Of a stretch of 64,000 bases of DNA, positions 1,481 through 63,489 are shown in pieces. The position numbers and the translations under genes are program-made. Source of the stretch: a virus (Duplodnaviria > Heunggongvirae > Uroviricota > Caudoviricetes); IMG/VR virus record IMGVR_UViG_3300028797_000096, positions 13,860 through 77,859 of that record; one strand, written 5' to 3'. Under the pieces are notes generated by a model that saw only the letters and a program-made list of their open reading frames with translations, was not told where the DNA came from and searched no databases. Each line of letters opens with the position of its first letter. Position 1 is the first letter of the stretch.

Positions 1481-4066
1481 TTAACTTTCAACAATCCACT
1501 CTAATTGTTGATTTACATAATTCCACCTTAATATTAAATTATTAGTGTTTTTTTCAGGTAAGGGTAAATCTGGTAAATTTAGTGGACGATTTATAAGGTC
1601 ATAATAATTACCAGTTGAAGCTACTTGTGCTAAATTTGCTACCCCAGCATCTACTTCATTATCATCATCTGTAATCCAACAAATCCAATCATCCGCTATT
1701 GTATGATTAGCTCTACCTGCTTCCCACTCTTGTTTAGTACCAATCCAATCATACATAATATCATTAGATTTAGTTTGTAAACCAATAGCAGTAATATTTG
1801 AAGAATTAGGCTGTTTTATAATAGTTACATCATCTGTTGTAATTACACTTCCAGAAGAAATATGAATTGTACCATCTGGATCAATTGCAATACCATCACC
1901 TGGTTTATATATTTGTCCGATATTTACCCAATTATTATTATACCAAGTATAAAAAGTATTCTCATCTAATACTTTATAAACTAATCCTTCTTGTAAAGTA
2001 GATTTTCTTTCACCTATAACAAAATCTGTACCACTCATACTCGTATGAAAAGTATTTGTAACTAAATCATACATACCAGCAGCTCGAATAACTTTATTAT
2101 AAGCAGGAATATAATTTAAAACAATTGTATCATCTTCATAAACCGCAAAGTCATATATACTTGTAACTAAAATTCTAACATTAGCATCATTGCCTTTAAA
2201 TAAAAATAAAGTAGAATCTAAACTAAAGTGAGGAATATCTGAATATGTCGAAAGAGTAACATTATCTACTTTTAATTTAGTATTATCTTGCATAACTGTA
2301 TGCTTTGTATTACCCCAATCGGTATCCATACTATAAGATTGTGTACCATATATAAAAGTAGCTCTATTAGTACTATAATTAGCGCCAAATCTAATTTTAT
2401 TACCTTCACTCCATGCAGTACTATAAATACAATTATCTAAACCATCTATTAATTTAAAACTTGCAACTACTTTAGTATGATTATTCGCTTTATAACCAGT
2501 ATCTATATATTGTAAATTATCAGCTGTAATATATTCTAATTCTAAATAATCATCAGATAATCTTGTGTTGCCTGTAGGTAAATCATTAAAAGTTGCTACT
2601 TCACCTTGATATTTATATACACCACCTAATTGTGATTTATTATAGTAATTAACTAAATTATTAGTATATCTATTTACAAATTGTGTTGTACTATTATCAT
2701 ATGTTGATAAATCATCTAATACACTAATTACATCATTAGATATATTAATATGATTTCCCATTTTTAAAGCATCTTGCTTAGCCTCTAATTCTTCTAATTT
2801 TTCAGCAGTTATACCTGAATTAACTGCTTCCATCTGATCTTTATCTAATTCATCTTGTTTATTATCCCAAATCTGCTTTTGTTCTGATGTTACATGAATA
2901 GAAGAATTTCTAGTATGTGCAGTTACTGTACCTGTTACTAGATTTATAGCTGTTTGTGTTGCTCTAGAAATAGGCTTATCTAAATCAGAAGTATTATCAA
3001 CATTACCTAAACCAACTTGTTCTTTAGTTACTTGATGAGGATTATCTGTATCTCTTGTATGTAAATCTAAGTTAGCTACATCTTCTTGTAAATCATTGAT
3101 ATCACTAGCATTTTTTGTAATACTTGGAACATTTGTACCATCACCAGTAATATAGTCTGCTGTTATACCAGAATTTAAAGCATCCCATTGAGCCTGACTA
3201 AAATTACTACTATTTAAAGTAAATTGAAAATTCCATACTGGTATATTATTAGTTACTTCTACACAAATATATCTAGTAGCCGGAGCTACTCCACTTTCTT
3301 CATGCTCTTCATCAGCTAAAACAATAGTATAATCATTTACAGCAGGAATAGCACCGGTACCTCTTTTATACCATACTGTAGCATTATCTAAATCGGCTTT
3401 TGTTGGGAAAGGATTACCATCTACATCATATGTAATATAAGCAGCAGATAAATTTTGTATTGCATAATTTACATAATCTTTATCTGCATAATCAGTTTCT
3501 GCTTCTTGCTTGGATAAATATGTATTATCAACAAATTCTCTAGTTGCAACTGTTTCAGTACTGTTTATAGTAACTATACCGTCTTCACTCTGTAAATTTA
3601 ATGGTAAATCTTCATGACCTATAAACACATGGTTATTACTAGAACCAAATATTTCATAGGCTACATCATCTACCATAACAGTAATAGTATTATTTTCACC
3701 TAAATTAACTGTTTTATGATTATCTACATTTTCATATGTAACACAATTTAATTGAATAATACCATCTATAATTGCATCTAATTGAGATTTAGAAGTAATT
3801 AAAACTTCTCTTGATAATTCTGGTAATGGATTACCTTCTTCATCGACACCTTCACCATTTGCAATTTCTAAATATGTACTACCACCTGTACCTAAAACAT
3901 AATATAATCTATAATCATCAGGATTCTGAGGATCACCATCTTCTACTAATTCATATGAATATACTTGTGTATTTGCAGGAATTATTTGTGTATATAATTC
4001 CCCACCTAACATATAATCACTTCTAGCACGGACAAATCTGTGTATAACTTTTGTTACTGTTGACAT
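1481..4066 (-). CDS. Large tail fibre/receptor-binding-like protein (861 aa)
   Basis: KEQVGLGNVDNTSDLDKPIS fibre motif, a YIDTGY... beta-rich lectin/ConA-like domain, and a C-terminal LAQVASTGNYYDLINRP motif. Confidence 0.7.
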   Translation of the reverse strand: MSTVTKVIHRFVRARSDYMLGGELYTQIIPANTQVYSYELVEDGDPQNPDDYRLYYVLGTGGSTYLEIANGEGVDEEGNPLPELSREVLITSKSQLDAIIDGIIQLNCVTYENVDNHKTVNLGENNTITVMVDDVAYEIFGSSNNHVFIGHEDLPLNLQSEDGIVTINSTETVATREFVDNTYLSKQEAETDYADKDYVNYAIQNLSAAYITYDVDGNPFPTKADLDNATVWYKRGTGAIPAVNDYTIVLADEEHEESGVAPATRYICVEVTNNIPVWNFQFTLNSSNFSQAQWDALNSGITADYITGDGTNVPSITKNASDINDLQEDVANLDLHTRDTDNPHQVTKEQVGLGNVDNTSDLDKPISRATQTAINLVTGTVTAHTRNSSIHVTSEQKQIWDNKQDELDKDQMEAVNSGITAEKLEELEAKQDALKMGNHINISNDVISVLDDLSTYDNSTTQFVNRYTNNLVNYYNKSQLGGVYKYQGEVATFNDLPTGNTRLSDDYLELEYITADNLQYIDTGYKANNHTKVVASFKLIDGLDNCIYSTAWSEGNKIRFGANYSTNRATFIYGTQSYSMDTDWGNTKHTVMQDNTKLKVDNVTLSTYSDIPHFSLDSTLFLFKGNDANVRILVTSIYDFAVYEDDTIVLNYIPAYNKVIRAAGMYDLVTNTFHTSMSGTDFVIGERKSTLQEGLVYKVLDENTFYTWYNNNWVNIGQIYKPGDGIAIDPDGTIHISSGSVITTDDVTIIKQPNSSNITAIGLQTKSNDIMYDWIGTKQEWEAGRANHTIADDWICWITDDDNEVDAGVANLAQVASTGNYYDLINRPLNLPDLPLPEKNTNNLILRWNYVNQQLEWIVES

Positions 4067-4097: not shown

Positions 4098-4103
4098 TAG
4101 AAC
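4098..4103 (-). promoter_or_regulatory. GTTCTA putative phage promoter
   Basis: AGTTCTAATT about 30 nt upstream of the ATG at 4066. Confidence 0.55.
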
Positions 4104-4132: not shown

Positions 4133-4239
4133 AAAATAAACCCGGTGGTCAAAAAGGAGGAAAATAACCACCGGGAAGACTGTCGGATGTGTAACACTGA
4201 AAAAATAATAAATCTTAACGATATATCAAAAAATCCGAC
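4133..4239 (-). ncRNA. Candidate small RNA with anti-SD loop
   Basis: GTTCTA at 4251-4246; 5' stem GTCGGAT/ATCCGAC (4239-4233 with 4188-4182); 9-bp CCCGGTGGT/ACCACCGGG terminator stem whose 17-nt loop contains CCTCCTT, followed by a U tract. Confidence 0.5.
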
Positions 4240-4251
4240 TATAAATAGAAC

Positions 4252-4854
4252 TCAACTATTCTTAATTTTTGTATATTCATAGAATTTAACCAAAATATCT
4301 CCTTCTTCTTCTGGTAATTCTTCATTAGAATAATTTAATTCTTTACAATTCCAATCTTTTGTATATTCTTCAATGTCTAAAGGAAATCTAATATATTTAT
4401 CAGGGTCTTTGGTTATATCCTCTGATAAAGTTTTACTTTCTACTTTAGTTAAATAAATTTTATCTACTACATTATTTTCTAAGCAATATTTATAAATAGA
4501 TCTCCCACCACAAATAAATATCTTAGAATAATTAGAAGCAAAGGCTACTGCATCTTCAAGACTTGGCATTTGTATAATACCACCTAACCATTCTTTAGTT
4601 TCATCTTCATTCTTTTTACCTATCCAAACAGCCTGACCTGCTTTATATTCAAAACTAACAACAATATTTAAACGATTTTTCAAAGGATAATCCGGTAATC
4701 CAAAAAATGTTCTATCACCAAATATACAAGGATAACCTTTAGTCATTTGTTTATAATGATAAAAGTCTTGCTTACTATGCCAAGGCATTTTATCTTCAAT
4801 ACCTATAACATTATCTGGACCAATGGCAAAAATAGCACAAATTTCTGATTTCAT
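4252..4854 (-). CDS. folA: Dihydrofolate reductase
   Basis: AIGPDNVIGIEDKMPWHSKQD, GDRTF, PLKNRLNIVVS, FICGGRSIYK and KIYLTKV motifs. Confidence 0.95.
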   Translation of the reverse strand: MKSEICAIFAIGPDNVIGIEDKMPWHSKQDFYHYKQMTKGYPCIFGDRTFFGLPDYPLKNRLNIVVSFEYKAGQAVWIGKKNEDETKEWLGGIIQMPSLEDAVAFASNYSKIFICGGRSIYKYCLENNVVDKIYLTKVESKTLSEDITKDPDKYIRFPLDIEEYTKDWNCKELNYSNEELPEEEGDILVKFYEYTKIKNS

Positions 4855-6601: not shown

Positions 6602-7060
6602 TTAATTCAGAAAATTACCAAGCATTTTATTTGTTTGACCACATAAATATGTTAAGTCAACCATATAATCACTCCAACATTTTACAACATTATGGATTTC
6701 TTCTAATCCATCAATAGAAGTATCCTCTTCAGAATAATAAGTTACTATATTTTCTGTTATCTTTTCACCAACCATTTTTGCTTTTTTAATTCCTGCTTTA
6801 GCTACAGCGTTTTTTCTTTTTGCAATCAATCCAGCAATTTGCCTTTCATAACGCTGAATTTGTGATTTAAAATAACCTAACTCAATCAAAGTAGTATGAC
6901 GCTTATCATTAGAAAGGCTTACAAACTTTTGAATATTTTTAAGAAATTGAATAAAATTAGCAATATCTGCTTCTGACTTAAATATATACTGTAATTGAGG
7001 AGCTAATGTATCAAAATTTAAAGCTTCTACTTTATCTAAATCAAATTCTAATTCTGCCAT
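6602..7060 (-). CDS. UvsY-like recombination mediator (putative)
   Basis: 152-aa helical protein with an ITENIVTYYSEED segment resembling UvsY; lies in the gp32/gp46/gp47 cluster. Confidence 0.5.
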   Translation of the reverse strand: MAELEFDLDKVEALNFDTLAPQLQYIFKSEADIANFIQFLKNIQKFVSLSNDKRHTTLIELGYFKSQIQRYERQIAGLIAKRKNAVAKAGIKKAKMVGEKITENIVTYYSEEDTSIDGLEEIHNVVKCWSDYMVDLTYLCGQTNKMLGNFLN

Positions 7061-13185: not shown

Positions 13186-15603
13186 TTAGACATCAATATC
13201 TTCTAAATTTTTCATTTCTGTTTTTTTAGTATCTATATCTTGAACTTTAACTTTTATATCATCAGGATTATCATCATCCATTAAAACATCAATAATTTCA
13301 TATTCTGGCATATTTGGTAATTGAATATCTATATCTTCTTGTTCATCTGGACTATAATCACCCCTAACATTAACATCAATATCTCCAAAATCTTTTTTAT
13401 CTGTAAAATCAGAAGTACCTAAATCAACATCTGGAATATCAGTAGTAGTTGTTGAAGATGTAGTTGTTGAACTTAAATCACTTGAATCCATATCAGATGA
13501 AATAGGACTACCTGTTGCAAAATCAGCCGGACTATCATCTTCTGTTAATCTTTGACCTAAAACTTTACTTAACCAAGGGTGTTTTTCAGCTGATTCAAAA
13601 ATTACACTTTCTGTTTTCTTTTTCATAAACAATTTAGCTATACCATGTAATTCTTCAGGAGAATAATCATTAATATCAACTTTTTTCTTTTTTAAGATTG
13701 CTTTTTCTTCATCACTAAAGCCTGGTAATGGATCTTTTTCAAATCCTTTAAATCCTTTAGCTGACATTTTTTTGATCATATCTTCTACAGCGTGAAAATG
13801 CTTAAATTTAGCTTGAACTTTTGCATCTGTTTGATATAATTCATCAAGTTTATTCTTTTCCCATTCTTTTCTTAATTTATAATTAACATTTGATCCATCA
13901 TTTGTATCAGATAAAGATACACGTGGAACAAATTTATGACCATCTTCTAAATTATCAGCCATATTTTTATTGAAAATATCAATAAATTTTTTATCCGGGT
14001 TTTCTTGAATTTCTAATGCTCTAGCCTTTATTGCTTCTTTTTGTTTATTTACATCTAAAGCATTAAACATAGGATCTTCTGTTTGTAATAATTTTCTAGC
14101 ATAATCTTGACTTAAATAATCTAAAAGGCCTTTATATTTACGACCACCTTCATCTGCTATATTATATTGGAAGAATGTACTTTTTATTTCATCCCATTTT
14201 GTTAAAAAATCATCAGGTAAAATAATTTCGCCATCTCTGATTTTTTGTTCATTGTGCTTAAGCCAAGCTAAGAATGCATTTACAGCTTTGCCACGTTGTG
14301 CTCTAATACCAGCTGGATCATAACCACCTTTACCATCTGGAGTATAATTAAAAGCTTCATCTATTTCTGTTTCTTCTGTTTTTTCTTTATTGCCAACATA
14401 AGCAACAGCAGAACCTAAATTAGCAGTAGCTGTACCAACACCACATTCTTCTATTTCTTCATCGTATTTAGCACCTGGCATTTTACCAATTTTTTCAGGT
14501 TCTTTTTGTTTAGAAAGAAATTGATAATCTTGTTTATTAATAGCTTTACCTACACCTTGCTGTAAAAGATCTTCTTCTTTATCAAGTTTATCTCTTAATT
14601 GTTTATCAGCAACTAATTCACGACGTAAATTATATACTTCATCAGATCTTTCTACGTTATTCTTTTTAAACTCTAAACTTTGTTTATTTTTTTCTGCTAA
14701 AATTGTATTTAATTCTTTTAAACGTTCTTTAGTTTCTTCTAAATCATCACTTTTATCTTGATAGTTTCTTTCTTCTTCTGGATCAGGTAATACACCTGTT
14801 AATGCACGTTTTTCTGATAATTTATTTACATATTTTTCTAACCAAGATAGTTTTGCTTCAAGCGTATGTTTTTCATCAGATAAGTTAGCTGTAGAAATAA
14901 TATTATCGTAGTAATCTTTATCATAATCATTAATAATTTTTGACCATTTACTTTTGGTTTTATCGTCTAAAATTCTACTTTTTGAGGGTTCCGGATTAGA
15001 ATTAGCTTTATTTGCAATTAATAAATCATACCAATTTCTACCTTCTGATTCTTCTTCTTTCATATCTACAGATTCATGTATAACGATAGATTCATCAGGC
15101 AAGGGATAGTTATGCTCTTTTAACCAATCTCTTAATTCACTTACTGATTTAAATAATTCAATCTTACCAGAATGTGATAAGCAAAGATAATCATTTTGTT
15201 TAAATATTTGAGCATTCTTATTTTCTAAAGATGCTGTATTACCTTGCTTATTTACTTGCCAAGTATTATTATCTTTATCTTGGGATAGTTTTTTCATCTT
15301 TTCTAAGATATCATTTAATTTGGAAGAAGCTGTTAATGTTTGCTTTAAAGTATCTTTAGCTTGGTTAACTAATTGTTCTTTTGTTTCTTTTGCTTCTTCT
15401 GATTCATTATCTAATGTATCTATTTCAAGTCCTGGAGTAGAAGGATTAAAATCAGAATCAGTTTTAACTATAGAAGAGAATTTACCATCTGCTTCAACGA
15501 TAACTGGAGTAAATTCTTTAACTGTATCATTTAGTTTTAATTTTTGCAAAGCTTCATTCATTGTAGACAAAAAACTTGAACGAATTTTAACAGTTTTTTC
15601 CAT
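13186..15603 (-). CDS. Large acidic/coiled-coil protein, probable internal head protein
   Basis: 805 aa with repeated hydrophobic-x-E sites (MNEA, IHES, IEEC, IDEA, IFES, LTED); two GTTCTA sites upstream (15655, 15714). Confidence 0.5.
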   Translation of the reverse strand: MEKTVKIRSSFLSTMNEALQKLKLNDTVKEFTPVIVEADGKFSSIVKTDSDFNPSTPGLEIDTLDNESEEAKETKEQLVNQAKDTLKQTLTASSKLNDILEKMKKLSQDKDNNTWQVNKQGNTASLENKNAQIFKQNDYLCLSHSGKIELFKSVSELRDWLKEHNYPLPDESIVIHESVDMKEEESEGRNWYDLLIANKANSNPEPSKSRILDDKTKSKWSKIINDYDKDYYDNIISTANLSDEKHTLEAKLSWLEKYVNKLSEKRALTGVLPDPEEERNYQDKSDDLEETKERLKELNTILAEKNKQSLEFKKNNVERSDEVYNLRRELVADKQLRDKLDKEEDLLQQGVGKAINKQDYQFLSKQKEPEKIGKMPGAKYDEEIEECGVGTATANLGSAVAYVGNKEKTEETEIDEAFNYTPDGKGGYDPAGIRAQRGKAVNAFLAWLKHNEQKIRDGEIILPDDFLTKWDEIKSTFFQYNIADEGGRKYKGLLDYLSQDYARKLLQTEDPMFNALDVNKQKEAIKARALEIQENPDKKFIDIFNKNMADNLEDGHKFVPRVSLSDTNDGSNVNYKLRKEWEKNKLDELYQTDAKVQAKFKHFHAVEDMIKKMSAKGFKGFEKDPLPGFSDEEKAILKKKKVDINDYSPEELHGIAKLFMKKKTESVIFESAEKHPWLSKVLGQRLTEDDSPADFATGSPISSDMDSSDLSSTTTSSTTTTDIPDVDLGTSDFTDKKDFGDIDVNVRGDYSPDEQEDIDIQLPNMPEYEIIDVLMDDDNPDDIKVKVQDIDTKKTEMKNLEDIDV

Positions 15604-16880: not shown

Positions 16881-18394
16881 TGATAAACGAAGATATTAAA
16901 GAACATTTTAAACAACTTTGTAAAGCTGCTAATCATACATTGACTAGAAGTGAATATCGTAAATTAAATGATATCAGAGAATATAGTTCTTCTAAAATAG
17001 AAGCTTTATGGGGTACTTGGAAAAGCTTTATTCAAGATGTTTCTAGTACTATCAATTTAAACCGATATGAAATTAAAAAAGTTGTAAAAAAAGCAATAAA
17101 TAATGTTGTAATTACTTCTGTTATTGATGGATCTAAAGTTGATTATACTTGCTTAAATACTTTAATCGCATATTGTAAAGAAGAAAAATGCCAATTATAT
17201 ATATTATGGAATAAAGCTTTAGCCTGTAATACACATTTCTCTAAAGAAGATTATGATTTATTAAAAAAATATTTAGTAACTGATTTAACTTTTGAAAAAG
17301 ATACAAGATGTAAAGCTGCTGATTTTTTAATTCCAGCTACAAGTAAAAATCCTTTGCAAAATTTAGATAAATTATCAAAAGGTTTAAATACAATTATTGT
17401 CGGTTCACCAAAGCAATATTTAGAAACCTTACCATGCGATCATTCTCATTCTTATAAAATTGCTTTAAGTACAGGTACAATTTCTTTACCTAATTATAAA
17501 TCCAATATTTCTGGGCATTTAGATGCTCAAAATCATACATTAGGTGGTATTAGATTAGAATGGAATCAACAAAAATCTCGTTATATAGTTCGTCAATTAC
17601 AAATGGATTCAGAAGGATTTGTTTATGATTTAAATACTGCATATTCTTCTAAAGGTATTGCTATGAGAGATAAATTAGTTTCTTGTATGGTATTAGGCGA
17701 TTTACATGCACCAGAAACTGATATGATTGCTTTAGATAATACTATAAAATTACTACAAAAATTAAATCCAGATGATGTTATGATTCATGATTGGATGAGT
17801 TATCAAAGTATTAATCACTATGATGAACATAGAGCATTAACTAAAATTTTAAATCTAACACCAGAAACAAAAGATTTAAAAACAGAAATAATGTGTAGTG
17901 TAGAGATTATAAATAAGTTAGCAAAATCTTGTCCTAAATCTATTTTTAGAATTGTACATTCTAATCATGATGAATTTTTGATAAAATGGCTAAATGAAGG
18001 TGAATTTGTAAAAAGTAACCCTGCAAATAGAGTAGCAGGATGCCAATTATTTGCTAACATTGCAGAAGGTAATCCAATATTTCCTGCAAATTTATTTAAT
18101 AAAAACATTAAATTTCTAGATCCAGAACAAAGTTATGAAATAAAAGGGTATGAAGTTGGAAAACATGGAGACGCTGGTATTGCTGGTGCTAAAGGAAATA
18201 CAAATGCCTATGTAAAAAGTTATGATAAATCAATTACAGGTCATACACATAGTCCAAAAATTAAAGAAAGTGGAGTAGTAGTAGGTACATTATCTAAATT
18301 AAAATTATCATATAATAAAACTTCAATTTCTAATTGGGCACATGCTAATTGTATATTATATAAAAACGGCACATTCCAATTAATTTTTGTATAG
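16880..18394 (+). CDS. Calcineurin-like metallophosphoesterase with an N-terminal homing-endonuclease-associated-repeat-like segment
   Basis: LGDLH, IHD, SNHD, KHG and GHTH motifs; N-terminal TLTRSEYRK...YSSSKIEALWGTW. Confidence 0.65.
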   Translation: MINEDIKEHFKQLCKAANHTLTRSEYRKLNDIREYSSSKIEALWGTWKSFIQDVSSTINLNRYEIKKVVKKAINNVVITSVIDGSKVDYTCLNTLIAYCKEEKCQLYILWNKALACNTHFSKEDYDLLKKYLVTDLTFEKDTRCKAADFLIPATSKNPLQNLDKLSKGLNTIIVGSPKQYLETLPCDHSHSYKIALSTGTISLPNYKSNISGHLDAQNHTLGGIRLEWNQQKSRYIVRQLQMDSEGFVYDLNTAYSSKGIAMRDKLVSCMVLGDLHAPETDMIALDNTIKLLQKLNPDDVMIHDWMSYQSINHYDEHRALTKILNLTPETKDLKTEIMCSVEIINKLAKSCPKSIFRIVHSNHDEFLIKWLNEGEFVKSNPANRVAGCQLFANIAEGNPIFPANLFNKNIKFLDPEQSYEIKGYEVGKHGDAGIAGAKGNTNAYVKSYDKSITGHTHSPKIKESGVVVGTLSKLKLSYNKTSISNWAHANCILYKNGTFQLIFV

Positions 18395-18448
18395 TTCTAG
18401 AAAAAATGTAATTCTATATAATATAACCATAAAATAAAGGAAATTAAA

Positions 18449-18643
18449 ATGGTAAAAGTAAAAAAAGAAACAAAAAAAGTAGCAACAAAGAAAACAGTTA
18501 AAAAAACTAACTGCAAATGTGCTAAAAAATCTACATGTAAAGCAAAGAAAACAACAAAGCCAGTAAAAGTTACAGTTGCAGCTCCAGTAGCTCCAGTAAA
18601 AAAATCTTTCTGGACAAAAGTTAAAGAATTCTTTGGCTTTTAA
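18449..18643 (+). CDS. Lys-rich histone-H1-like small protein
   Basis: SD AAGGA; KKETKKVATKKTVKK...; C-terminal SFWTKVKEFFGF. Confidence 0.7.
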   Translation: MVKVKKETKKVATKKTVKKTNCKCAKKSTCKAKKTTKPVKVTVAAPVAPVKKSFWTKVKEFFGF

Positions 18644-18669
18644 GTAAATCAAAAAGGAGAAAATTTATT

Positions 18670-18978
18670 ATGGATAAAATGTATGCTGCTATAAACAGCA
18701 ATGTATTTGTTAAAGAAATTCAGCAAGAACCTAGACAAGGAAGTATGCTATTACCAAATTCTTTAGACGATGATTTTACATTTGGTGAAGTTATTTCTGT
18801 AGCGGAAGGCTATTTTGATCATGGTAATTTTGTACAATCTTGTGTACAGACTGGTGATATTGTTGCATTTCCAAAAATTTCTGGTACTAAAGTTAATTTC
18901 AATTCTATTCCTTTAATCCGTGTTATGCAATCTGATATTGTAGCAAAACAAGTAGAAGGTAAAATTTTAGAAGATTAA
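18670..18978 (+). CDS. groES: Co-chaperonin GroES
   Basis: GSMLLP mobile loop, GEVISVAEG, VQTGDIV, SDIVAK; directly upstream of groEL. Confidence 0.9.
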   Translation: MDKMYAAINSNVFVKEIQQEPRQGSMLLPNSLDDDFTFGEVISVAEGYFDHGNFVQSCVQTGDIVAFPKISGTKVNFNSIPLIRVMQSDIVAKQVEGKILED

Positions 18979-19002
18979 TTTTATAGAAAAGGAGAAAATA
19001 TT

Positions 19003-20717: not shown

Positions 20718-20723
20718 GTTCTA
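20718..20723 (+). promoter_or_regulatory. GTTCTA putative phage promoter
   Basis: Immediately after the terminator, 9 nt before the ATG at 20733. Confidence 0.55.
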
Positions 20724-44114: not shown

Positions 44115-44185
44115 ATTTTATAGAACTTAAAAACCCCTATAAAAATTATAGGGGTTTATATTTAATATAATAAATCAAGAAAGAC

Positions 44186-62273: not shown

Positions 62274-62370
62274 ATCTACCCCGCTAACAATTTCCAAAAT
62301 CTTTTACTGTTATATTACCATATATATATAATAAAGTAAATAAAAATAAACATACAATGTGATATAACAT

Positions 62371-62470
62371 ATATGACTCTAACATATCCACCTCTTCTCT
62401 ATAGAGAATAACATCCCAACAGAGTCATTGAAATATGAGTCTAACCTAATATCCCCCATCTCTATAGAGA
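62371..62470. repeat. Imperfect ~63-bp tandem duplication, each copy with a TCTCTATAGAGA palindrome
   Basis: ATATGA(C/G)TCTAAC at 62371 and 62433; TCTCTATAGAGA at 62396 and 62459. Confidence 0.75.
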
Positions 62471-62499
62471 AAGAAAATATCATACCTGACTCAAAAACC

Positions 62500-62750
62500 A
62501 TATCACATGACCATAACTACGACTACCCGTACCTACCTGCTTCTACCTGTACCTACGTGCCTATATCCTAACCCTATCCTAACTTCTACTTATACCTATA
62601 TCTTTAACACATACTTACTACCCTTGTCTTAACTTCTATCCTAACATATATCCTAACCCCTACTCTAACGTATACTTTAATGTATGTCCTAGCACCTATC
62701 CTAACCCCCTACATTAGCATATACCATAATTCTAACGCATACCCATACCT
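62500..62750. repeat. C-rich, G-poor low-complexity tract with five TATCCTAAC copies
   Basis: Copies at 62564, 62575, 62637, 62649 and 62697. Confidence 0.75.
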
Positions 62751-62960
62751 ACTGGACGGGCCTGTGTCTGTTTTACCCCTACGCGTAAGGGCCTGGTAGG
62801 GGGGGTATCCCCGGGCCCCTCCCCTTCGTTTTGGGCCTTTTTTTGTCTATATACTTGTATAGATTGGGCCCGAATCTGTCAAGTCGGGACTTACTGGGAA
62901 TGATTGGGTCAGTTTTTGTCTTACACGTAAGGGCTCCCTAGCCGGGGGGTCTATGGTCGG

Positions 62961-63384
62961 GACCACTTTCTGGTAATTTGTTGGTTGGTATTCTCGCTTG
63001 ACCACTTTTTTTATATTCAATTGGTTAAAAATTTGTTTCATAATATAATAAACAAAATGAAAATTCAATCTGTTGAATCTAAATTTTGTGGTTGAAAATA
63101 AATGTGTTTGTGGTTATGAACAAAAACGACCACGAAAATTGGATGATTGTGGTTATAAAAAATAGACCACAAATCATAATAAGTTGTGGTTATACATAAA
63201 AATTTGACCGTTTTTTAACTGTATACTTGGTTAAAATCTGTGTTATAATTTATATGTATAAAATAAAAATTCAATATGTTGAATCTACATTTTATATTTG
63301 ATGTATAATCTATTGCGTATGTATACTATTACACAATAAACTATACATTATATATAGTGTATAGATAATCATGTTTTTGTGGTT
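62961..63384. repeat. Array of TTGTGGTT/GACCAC sites and two ATTCAA-N4-TTGAAT palindromes
   Basis: TTGTGGTT at 63086, 63108, 63147, 63184, 63377; GACCAC at 62961, 63000, 63128, 63165; palindromes at 63063 and 63269. Confidence 0.7.
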
Positions 63385-63489
63385 TTACCTTATAATAAGA
63401 GTCTATATTTTAGGATGTGGACTCTTTTTTATATGGGTAAACATTATAAAACATATAAGTCTAACTAGTCAAAACTAAAAGGATGAAAA

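Follow-up and report, generated by a model that had tools for sequence, protein, structure and literature searches.

A conserved structured RNA with an anti-Shine-Dalgarno loop, a predicted small RNA, follows the dihydrofolate reductase gene of uncultured jumbo phages

The locus and the predicted RNA unit

The DNA analysed (hereafter the window) was a stretch of 64,000 nucleotides (nt) corresponding to positions 13,860 to 77,859 of the IMG/VR virus record IMGVR_UViG_3300028797_000096 (231.6 kb, 93% complete according to CheckV, ~28% G+C). The element under study is a predicted small-RNA gene on the minus strand, located between a dihydrofolate reductase (DHFR) gene and a tail-fibre-like gene. 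Unless another sequence is named, coordinates are those of the window.

The DHFR gene (4252..4854, minus strand, 200 amino acids (aa)) was recognised by Pfam DHFR_1 (E 1.8e-24) and by phrog_316, and the RNA unit begins at its TGA stop codon (4254-4252). The downstream tail-fibre-like gene (4066..1481, minus strand; PHROG tail-fibre hits) is served by a GTTCTA box of its own (4098..4103, minus strand), assigned from the sequence and from genome-wide box statistics; the RNA unit is therefore not needed as a promoter for this gene. A tRNA/tmRNA search of the region found none.

The RNA unit opens with another GTTCTA promoter-like box (4246..4251, minus strand; context GAGTTCTATTTATAG), which abuts the DHFR stop codon. 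The predicted transcription start is the G at 4239 (minus strand), the seventh nucleotide after the box, and was placed from the box spacing and from the start of the 5' hairpin in all nine homologues described below. The 5' hairpin domain (4182..4239, minus strand) was delimited with RNAfold and with alignment A8 and its consensus fold; its outer stem of 7 base pairs (bp) is formed by GUCGGAU (4239-4233) and AUCCGAC (4188-4182) and encloses an inner stem. A 6-nt linker separates this domain from a terminator hairpin (4141..4175, minus strand) defined by RNAfold, covariation and an arm-swap test, in which CCCGGUGGU (4175-4167) and ACCACCGGG (4149-4141) form a GC-rich stem of 9 bp around the 17-nt loop UAUUUUCCUCCUUUUUG (4166-4150). 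With RNAfold, two extra closing pairs (U-G and A-U) were predicted, which lengthen the stem to 11 bp and leave a loop of 13 nt. The stem (9-11 bp) contains 7 G-C pairs and is directly followed by the U tract UUUAUUUU (4133..4140, minus strand), taken from the sequence as the predicted 3' end. From box+7 to the U tract, the RNA would be ~103-107 nt long.

The terminator loop holds the octamer CCUCCUUU (4153..4160, minus strand), which is the core of the anti-Shine-Dalgarno (anti-SD) tail of 16S rRNA and is complementary to AAAGGAGG. This core, with its CCUCCUU stretch, was unpaired in both the minimum free energy (MFE) and the centroid structures. The MFE of the segment 4125-4252 was -32.6 kcal/mol (z = -4.56), and 0/200 shuffled sequences folded as well (RNAfold). 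The original prediction for this locus had been drawn from the letters of the DNA, and the box, stem, terminator, loop and U tract that it listed were all present in the sequence.

The size of the loop was compared with those of the other terminators of the genome. The median was ~5 nt among 21 stringent terminators, and the loop studied here was among the three largest, the two others having 13 and 17 nt. The GC-rich stem and the U tract are those of an intrinsic terminator, whereas the loop of 13-17 nt lies outside the typical range (3-8 nt), and a standard terminator scan for loops of 3-8 nt did not report the hairpin.

Conservation and covariation in related phages

Relatives were found in IMG/VR and in metagenome contigs with the DHFR protein as query (DHFR identity to the window 40-68%); the tail-fibre-like protein and a 350-aa neighbour protein, used as queries, found no related loci. 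The RNA unit was present in every relative with sequence downstream of DHFR (L002, L003, L006, L007, L055, L057, L059/L060 and L064), L061 being cut off. In all nine distinct sequences the box lies 0-14 nt after the DHFR stop codon, the nucleotide at box+7 is a G and forms the first paired base of the 5' hairpin, and a terminator hairpin with a 13-20-nt loop is followed by a U tract. The unit occurs as a single copy per relative genome.

The arms of the terminator stem differ in every phage, each being perfectly complementary to its own partner. When arms were swapped between phages (pairs 4-9 from the loop), own arms gave 6/6 pairs in 9/9 sequences and swapped arms gave 6/6 pairs in 1/72 pairings. 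In the model-based alignment A9 (seven sequences), 10 of 13 pairs carried compensatory changes and 100% of the cells were paired; none of 500 shuffles reached the observed value, and slid controls were paired at 30-58%. Because A9 was fitted to the structure of the model, the independent arm-swap test matters. MAFFT alignments of the terminator across subgroups (A3, A7 and A8) were not structure-consistent and were excluded from the counts in favour of A9 and the arm-swap test. Folding and covariation across related phages, two of the checks suggested with the original prediction, both supported the structure.

The loop core CCUCCUUU was invariant in 9/9 homologues of the clade, while stems and flanks vary; the window, L055 and L057 have U-rich pyrimidine flanks around the core, the other relatives C-rich ones. 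The anti-SD loop on which the original prediction had been built is thus conserved and under selection, and an invariant core on replaced stems fits an anti-SD seed of the kind found in RNAIII- and alpha-r14-type small RNAs (sRNAs). The 5' domain hardly varies within the close subgroup (the window, L055 and L057), in which the terminator stem has been wholly replaced; this domain is therefore also under sequence-level constraint. The other relatives have shorter 5' hairpins of different sequence at the same position, and an exact search of IMG/VR with the 18-nt core of the window-type 5' domain gave no other match.

Two calibrated covariance models (R1 and R2) were obtained. R2, built without the window and L057, found both (38.5 and 39.2 bits, respectively, E ~1e-4); the match in the window (38.5 bits, E 1.6e-4 in 133 kb, E 2.8e-4 for the whole genome) was the sole hit in the window and the only significant one in the genome. 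Weaker R1/R2 matches at G000 111864 and 94406, considered as paralogues, were rejected as ordinary small-loop terminators. Rfam searches of the window region and of six related loci at permissive E-values (up to 10) assigned no family to the phage element, and the 6C RNA, RsaE and RNAIII models of Rfam gave no covariance-model match. R1 and R2 define a new RNA family; the window element has its box, its 5' hairpin, its terminator loop with CCUCCUUU and its position after DHFR.

These data bear on two simpler accounts of the locus. The hairpin could be a plain intrinsic terminator with a large pyrimidine loop that does nothing by itself, as the GC-rich stem and the U tract would allow and as the two other large-loop terminators of the genome would illustrate. 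However, a neutral loop would be expected to drift, and here the core has stayed invariant although the DHFR proteins are only 40-68% identical and the stems have been replaced; a conserved promoter box and 5' hairpin also precede the terminator. We consider this account very improbable. The contention of the original prediction, that so long a loop goes beyond the needs of a terminator, agrees with the discrete conserved unit found here, composed of promoter box, 5' hairpin at the predicted +1 and terminator.

Alternatively, the signal could belong to the plus strand, the loop being the Shine-Dalgarno (SD) sequence (AAAGGAGG) of a small gene, or the unit could serve the downstream gene as a leader or attenuator. 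The plus strand does read AAAAGGAGGAAAA, an open reading frame (ORF; 4145..4282, plus strand, 45 aa) overlaps the region, and a second candidate CCUCC-loop hairpin (G000 157684, minus strand) was rejected as being the reverse complement of an ordinary ribosome-binding site (RBS). Yet the plus-strand SD has no start codon 5-10 nt downstream (the nearest ATG is ~27 nt away), the frame is closed after 3 codons or absent in the relatives, and the U tract and the GTTCTA box fit the minus strand only. A role as leader or attenuator is contradicted by the separate box of the downstream gene (4103-4098) and by the convergent orientation of the next gene in L002, L006 and L064. Both forms of this explanation are extremely improbable.

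The GTTCTA box as a promoter-like element

GTTCTA occurs at 149 sites in the genome and is not over-represented overall as a hexamer. In intergenic DNA, which makes up 7.8% of the genome, 63 sites were counted against 11.7 expected (5.4-fold), and 52 of these 63 point at a gene start on the same strand at most 120 nt away. The extended consensus is roughly A-GTTCTA-TATAAT. Examples in the window are found at 44126 and 49190 (minus strand) and at 20718 (plus strand).

Five genes have the exact arrangement GTTCTA-N6-ATG, and seven have a spacing of 10 nt or less; the N6 spacing also occurs in relatives, with different spacer sequences. This fixed spacing is best explained by transcription that would start at box+7 and yield leaderless messages. 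Most genes behind a GTTCTA box have leaders of 20-50 nt with AAGGAG. A sigma-70-type promoter for the RNA unit was also considered and was not supported: one weak match (9/12) overlaps the box, and such matches numbered 17 versus 21 in shuffled sequences.

The box lies 5' of the tail sheath, head protease and tail-fibre-like genes, in keeping with the late expression that had been proposed for the RNA, but it also precedes a DNA helicase gene; late expression is thus plausible, and not exclusive.

Two further elements with this box were recorded. A GTTCTA box followed by GGTAGTATAGAA(A/G)CGC... was found at L057:2230-2290, directly after the small RNA, and at G000:C1:131564-131620; it may represent another small RNA or a tRNA-like gene under the same type of promoter. 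Outside the window, a long hairpin (G000:C1:94334-94400) in a non-coding island has a pyrimidine-rich loop of 27 nt (UCCUUCCUUUCC...CUCUCUCCU), and the 3' arm of this hairpin has an embedded GTTCTA box.

The same loop outside the clade

IMG/VR was searched with the exact loop of the C-rich subgroup, and 13 stretches were found, versus 2 for the same letters reversed; four of the 13 are relatives from the clade. The long loop identities across lineages are partly imposed by this search pattern. Hairpins with unrelated stems presented the same loop in L025 and L027, where they follow the major head gene and the capsid protein is not related to that of the clade, in L021, where the position is after a holin gene, and in an intergenic spacer of L017. 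In L025 (7402-7479, minus strand) and L027 (3876-3949), the major head gene is immediately followed by this hairpin as its terminator, and GTTCTA lies in the last codons of that gene; the anti-SD loop would there sit at the 3' end of the late mRNA that is probably the most abundant. In the 60%-GC viral contigs L019 (5705-5739), L020 and L023, what appears to be a coding region contains a GC-rich hairpin of 10 bp with the same pyrimidine loop of 15 nt; in L019, a purine run complementary to the loop lies 13 nt downstream, and a pseudoknot is possible.

In a search of prokaryote genomes, a conserved intergenic two-hairpin RNA was found in 14 Candidatus Binatia assemblies (L036:2731-2852, minus strand, and 13 other loci among L028-L054). 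Its first loop is UCCUCCCCGU, and in its terminator it has the same loop as phages L003 and L006. This RNA scored 32.8 bits with the ar14 model, below the gathering score (58.8), and matched R2 with E 0.004; it looks like an undescribed bacterial family of anti-SD-loop sRNAs. The remaining matches in prokaryote genomes had no stems, and their number fitted the chance expectation.

The occurrence of one loop on unrelated stems suggests a recurrent, possibly convergent module directed against SD recognition. Since the window loop differs in its flanks, only the CCUCCUUU core would be obligatory.

The positions after the major head gene (L025 and L027) and the holin gene (L021) are those of 3' untranslated regions (3'-UTRs), and the phage unit itself, in place of being an independent gene, could belong to the DHFR operon as a 3'-UTR or terminator element. 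The loop would then be part of the mRNA or of a processed 3' fragment and would act in cis or bind a factor, and the GTTCTA box would have no role for the hairpin. It is consistent with this that the unit is always attached to the 3' end of DHFR while the downstream context varies. On the other hand, the box, the 6-nt spacer and the +1 G followed by a hairpin are kept in all nine sequences despite differing spacer and hairpin sequences, and changes in the loop flanks are not matched in the DHFR RBSs. A pure 3'-UTR role is unlikely, although it retains an appreciable probability; it is compatible with an independent sRNA, as the loop would also be present on transcripts reading through from DHFR.

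Pairing of the loop with start regions

The predicted pairing energy of the loop was calculated for 300 start regions of the phage (median -7.0 kcal/mol, versus -2.5 kcal/mol for random genomic sites). A GGAG, GAGG or AGGA motif is present at -20 to -4 in 168 of the 300 genes; since the phage genes use such AAGGAG-type SDs, the host is expected to read SD sequences. The groES and groEL strings quoted in the original prediction (18650-18659 and 18987-19000) were found at those positions, and the two genes ranked third and fourth of the 300 by loop pairing, behind an sbcD-like gene and ORF 6602-7060; the groES site is an 11-nt perfect complement to the loop.

The proposed silencing of the phage's own chaperonin genes had predicted pairing in this phage in its favour, but it was not sustained by the comparison with relatives. 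Candidate phage targets (groES/groEL and DHFR) were rejected, as they showed neither covariation with the loop nor an extended complement in relatives. Because specificity for groES/groEL fails in this comparison, the conserved feature is, as judged from the sequences, the predicted recognition of the generic SD core and not of one particular phage message. The invariant 5' domain had no 11-mer complement in the phage genome.

It had also been proposed that leaderless late genes would be spared by the RNA. Predicted pairing was only slightly weaker for genes directly behind a GTTCTA box (median -6.0 versus -7.3 kcal/mol, p = 0.01); the frequency of SDs in GTTCTA-driven genes (46%) did not differ significantly from that in other genes (59%). 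Only 5-7 genes are leaderless-like, and most leaders bear an SD.

Masking of SD sequences by the loop is, in our estimate, close to an even proposition with a slight lean in its favour, and several results weigh against it. Shuffled loops of the same composition also paired reasonably well with the A/G-rich start regions (median -5.9 versus -7.0 kcal/mol). The groES/groEL RBSs of four relatives and the DHFR RBSs of the relatives were ordinary and did not follow the changed loop flanks, and in eight related or analogous phage records no site with at least 13/16 nt complementary to the loop was found, the element itself apart. A loop matching every strong SD would also strike most of the phage's own genes, including those driven by GTTCTA. 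The transcription start at 4239 is inferred from spacing alone. Finally, loop identities of 15-21 nt across unrelated lineages and the invariant 5' domain of the close subgroup exceed what an 8-nt SD seed needs, which hints at a further or different partner.

The 3' end of 16S rRNA is ...CACCUCCUUUCU in many bacteria. The phage RNA shares its core CCUCCUUU and would thus recognise the same mRNA sites as the ribosome; unlike in 16S rRNA, the core is in the closed hairpin loop of a small RNA and not in a free 3' tail on the 30S platform. The loop could hence be a decoy that mimics the 16S tail and titrates a protein or nuclease recognising it, rather than pairing with mRNAs. Candidate partners would be an anti-SD-cleaving toxin of an abortive-infection system (some MazF toxins cleave the UCCUU of the 16S anti-SD) or a protein of the platform, for example bS21, which adjoins the anti-SD tail on the 30S subunit. 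A bS21 homologue is encoded in the phage genome, outside the window (G000:C1:172700-172852, minus strand; Pfam PF01165, 27.4 bits, at the cut-off). A decoy would also account for a core equal to that of the 16S tail, for loops of 15-21 nt that are identical in unrelated phages and in Binatia and longer than an SD seed requires, and for the lack of a covarying mRNA partner. All of this support is indirect. In addition, the bS21 homologue was not found in G001 and G004, two relatives that carry the RNA, the long loop identities owe something to the search pattern, and the flanks differ between the U-rich subgroup of the window and the C-rich relatives, as expected if only the CCUCCUUU core matters. 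We regard a decoy function as improbable.

Comparison with known RNAs

The closest class is that of the alpha-r14/cuckoo sRNAs of Alphaproteobacteria (NfeR1/SmelC397, CcsR1-4; RF02344 ar14), with which the phage RNA shares an invariant anti-SD loop motif on freely varying stems. In reporter assays with seed mutants, NfeR1 silences mRNAs at the RBS, and it is Hfq-independent (PMC10746234; PMC3927594). The alpha-r14 RNAs are chromosomal and stress-regulated, and have two to four hairpins each with CCUCCUCCC, whereas the phage RNA has one anti-SD loop (CCUCCUUU), in the terminator hairpin, with no such motif in the loop of the 5' hairpin, and its gene, in a jumbo phage of lytic type, lies behind a promoter box of the phage. 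Even with E values up to 10 allowed, neither the window element nor the homologous phage elements matched the ar14 model. With no covariance-model match, a single loop, another motif and a phage promoter, the phage RNA resembles alpha-r14 in principle, on paper, but is not a member of that family.

RNAIII of S. aureus (H7, H13 and H14), RsaE/RoxS and the actinobacterial 6C RNA have apical C-rich loops that pair with G-rich SD regions, as is proposed here, and one of the C-rich loops of RNAIII lies in its terminator hairpin. The motifs of these RNAs are UCCC or CCCC and none of them is known to be phage-encoded, whereas the phage RNA has the full anti-SD core with U-rich flanks. The C-rich loops of 6C bind several mRNAs, and no chaperone is required (PMC6486639). 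Terminator-loop seeds are known from enterobacterial sRNAs, e.g. RprA on fepA, in which the terminator loop is the base-pairing region (PMC11979758). Those RNAs have specific targets and not the generic SD, are Hfq-dependent and are unrelated in sequence to the phage RNA.

Post-transcriptional shut-off aimed at RBSs is carried out in phage T4 by RegB, which cuts within GGAG, and by RegA, which competes with the ribosome; both are proteins, and their likeness to the phage RNA is confined to function. Nothing comparable to a generic anti-SD RNA appears in a 2025 review of phage-derived sRNAs (PMC12197685), and a targeted literature search found no description of a phage RNA with such an anti-SD loop.

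Other features of the phage genome

The genome encodes GroES/GroEL, SbcCD-like proteins, a dCMP deaminase and DHFR, together with tail sheath, portal and head protease genes. No relative among cultured phages was found by BLAST at the DNA level, and the best phage match of GroEL (Bacteroides phages DAC) has an identity of only 39%. The phages that carry the unit form a clade of ~230-kb AT-rich uncultured jumbo phages.

Upstream of groES there is an apparent gap of 276 nt (18394-18670), which opens with a GTTCTA box at 18394 and contains a small lysine-rich ORF (ATG at ~18449) that is missed by ORF lists with a 90-aa minimum. A further region of ~1.2 kb (62300-63480) is without ORFs. Words resembling CCTAAC/CCTAC recur in a pyrimidine-rich part of it (62500-62760), which is followed by a hairpin-bearing GC-rich island (62760-62990) and by no fewer than five TGTGGTTA-like boxes (63080-63390). 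From its composition, this region looks like an origin or another cis-acting DNA region.

Interpretation

The anatomy, conservation, stem covariation, loop invariance, promoter-box statistics and single copy number were observed directly, and there is little doubt that the unit is a real, conserved, structured RNA. It is likely, on our prediction, to be an independently transcribed small RNA. As an overall reading, we lean moderately towards a self-contained small-RNA gene, the product of which would act in trans and mask RBSs. The mechanism would be as follows: transcription would start 7 nt downstream of the phage-specific GTTCTA box that follows the DHFR stop codon, the 5'-terminal hairpin would probably protect the 5' end, and the large apical loop of the intrinsic terminator would present CCUCCUUU in single-stranded form. 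This loop would pair in trans with the AAAGGAGG-type SDs of mRNAs and block the binding of the 30S subunit, as in the alpha-r14/NfeR1, RNAIII and 6C classes. We infer that the RNA accumulates; the mRNAs affected through SD pairing would be those of the host or of the phage.

A bolder possibility, which we hold only tentatively and consider unlikely, is that the loop is a deliberate copy of the 16S anti-SD tail that globally re-weights translation initiation during infection. Unrelated phages and some bacteria would then deploy an abundant competitor of the ribosome for SDs, or a decoy for factors that recognise the anti-SD; weak-SD or leaderless messages, for example, would be favoured over strong-SD messages, and the RNA would act alongside the phage bS21.

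The RNA regulators of lytic phages, and of jumbo phages especially, are almost unexplored. For an uncultured phage the comparative evidence is unusually clean, with a promoter-like box, a 5' hairpin at the predicted +1, covarying stems and an invariant loop. Should the RNA prove abundant, phages would have in it a new means of commandeering or adjusting host translation.

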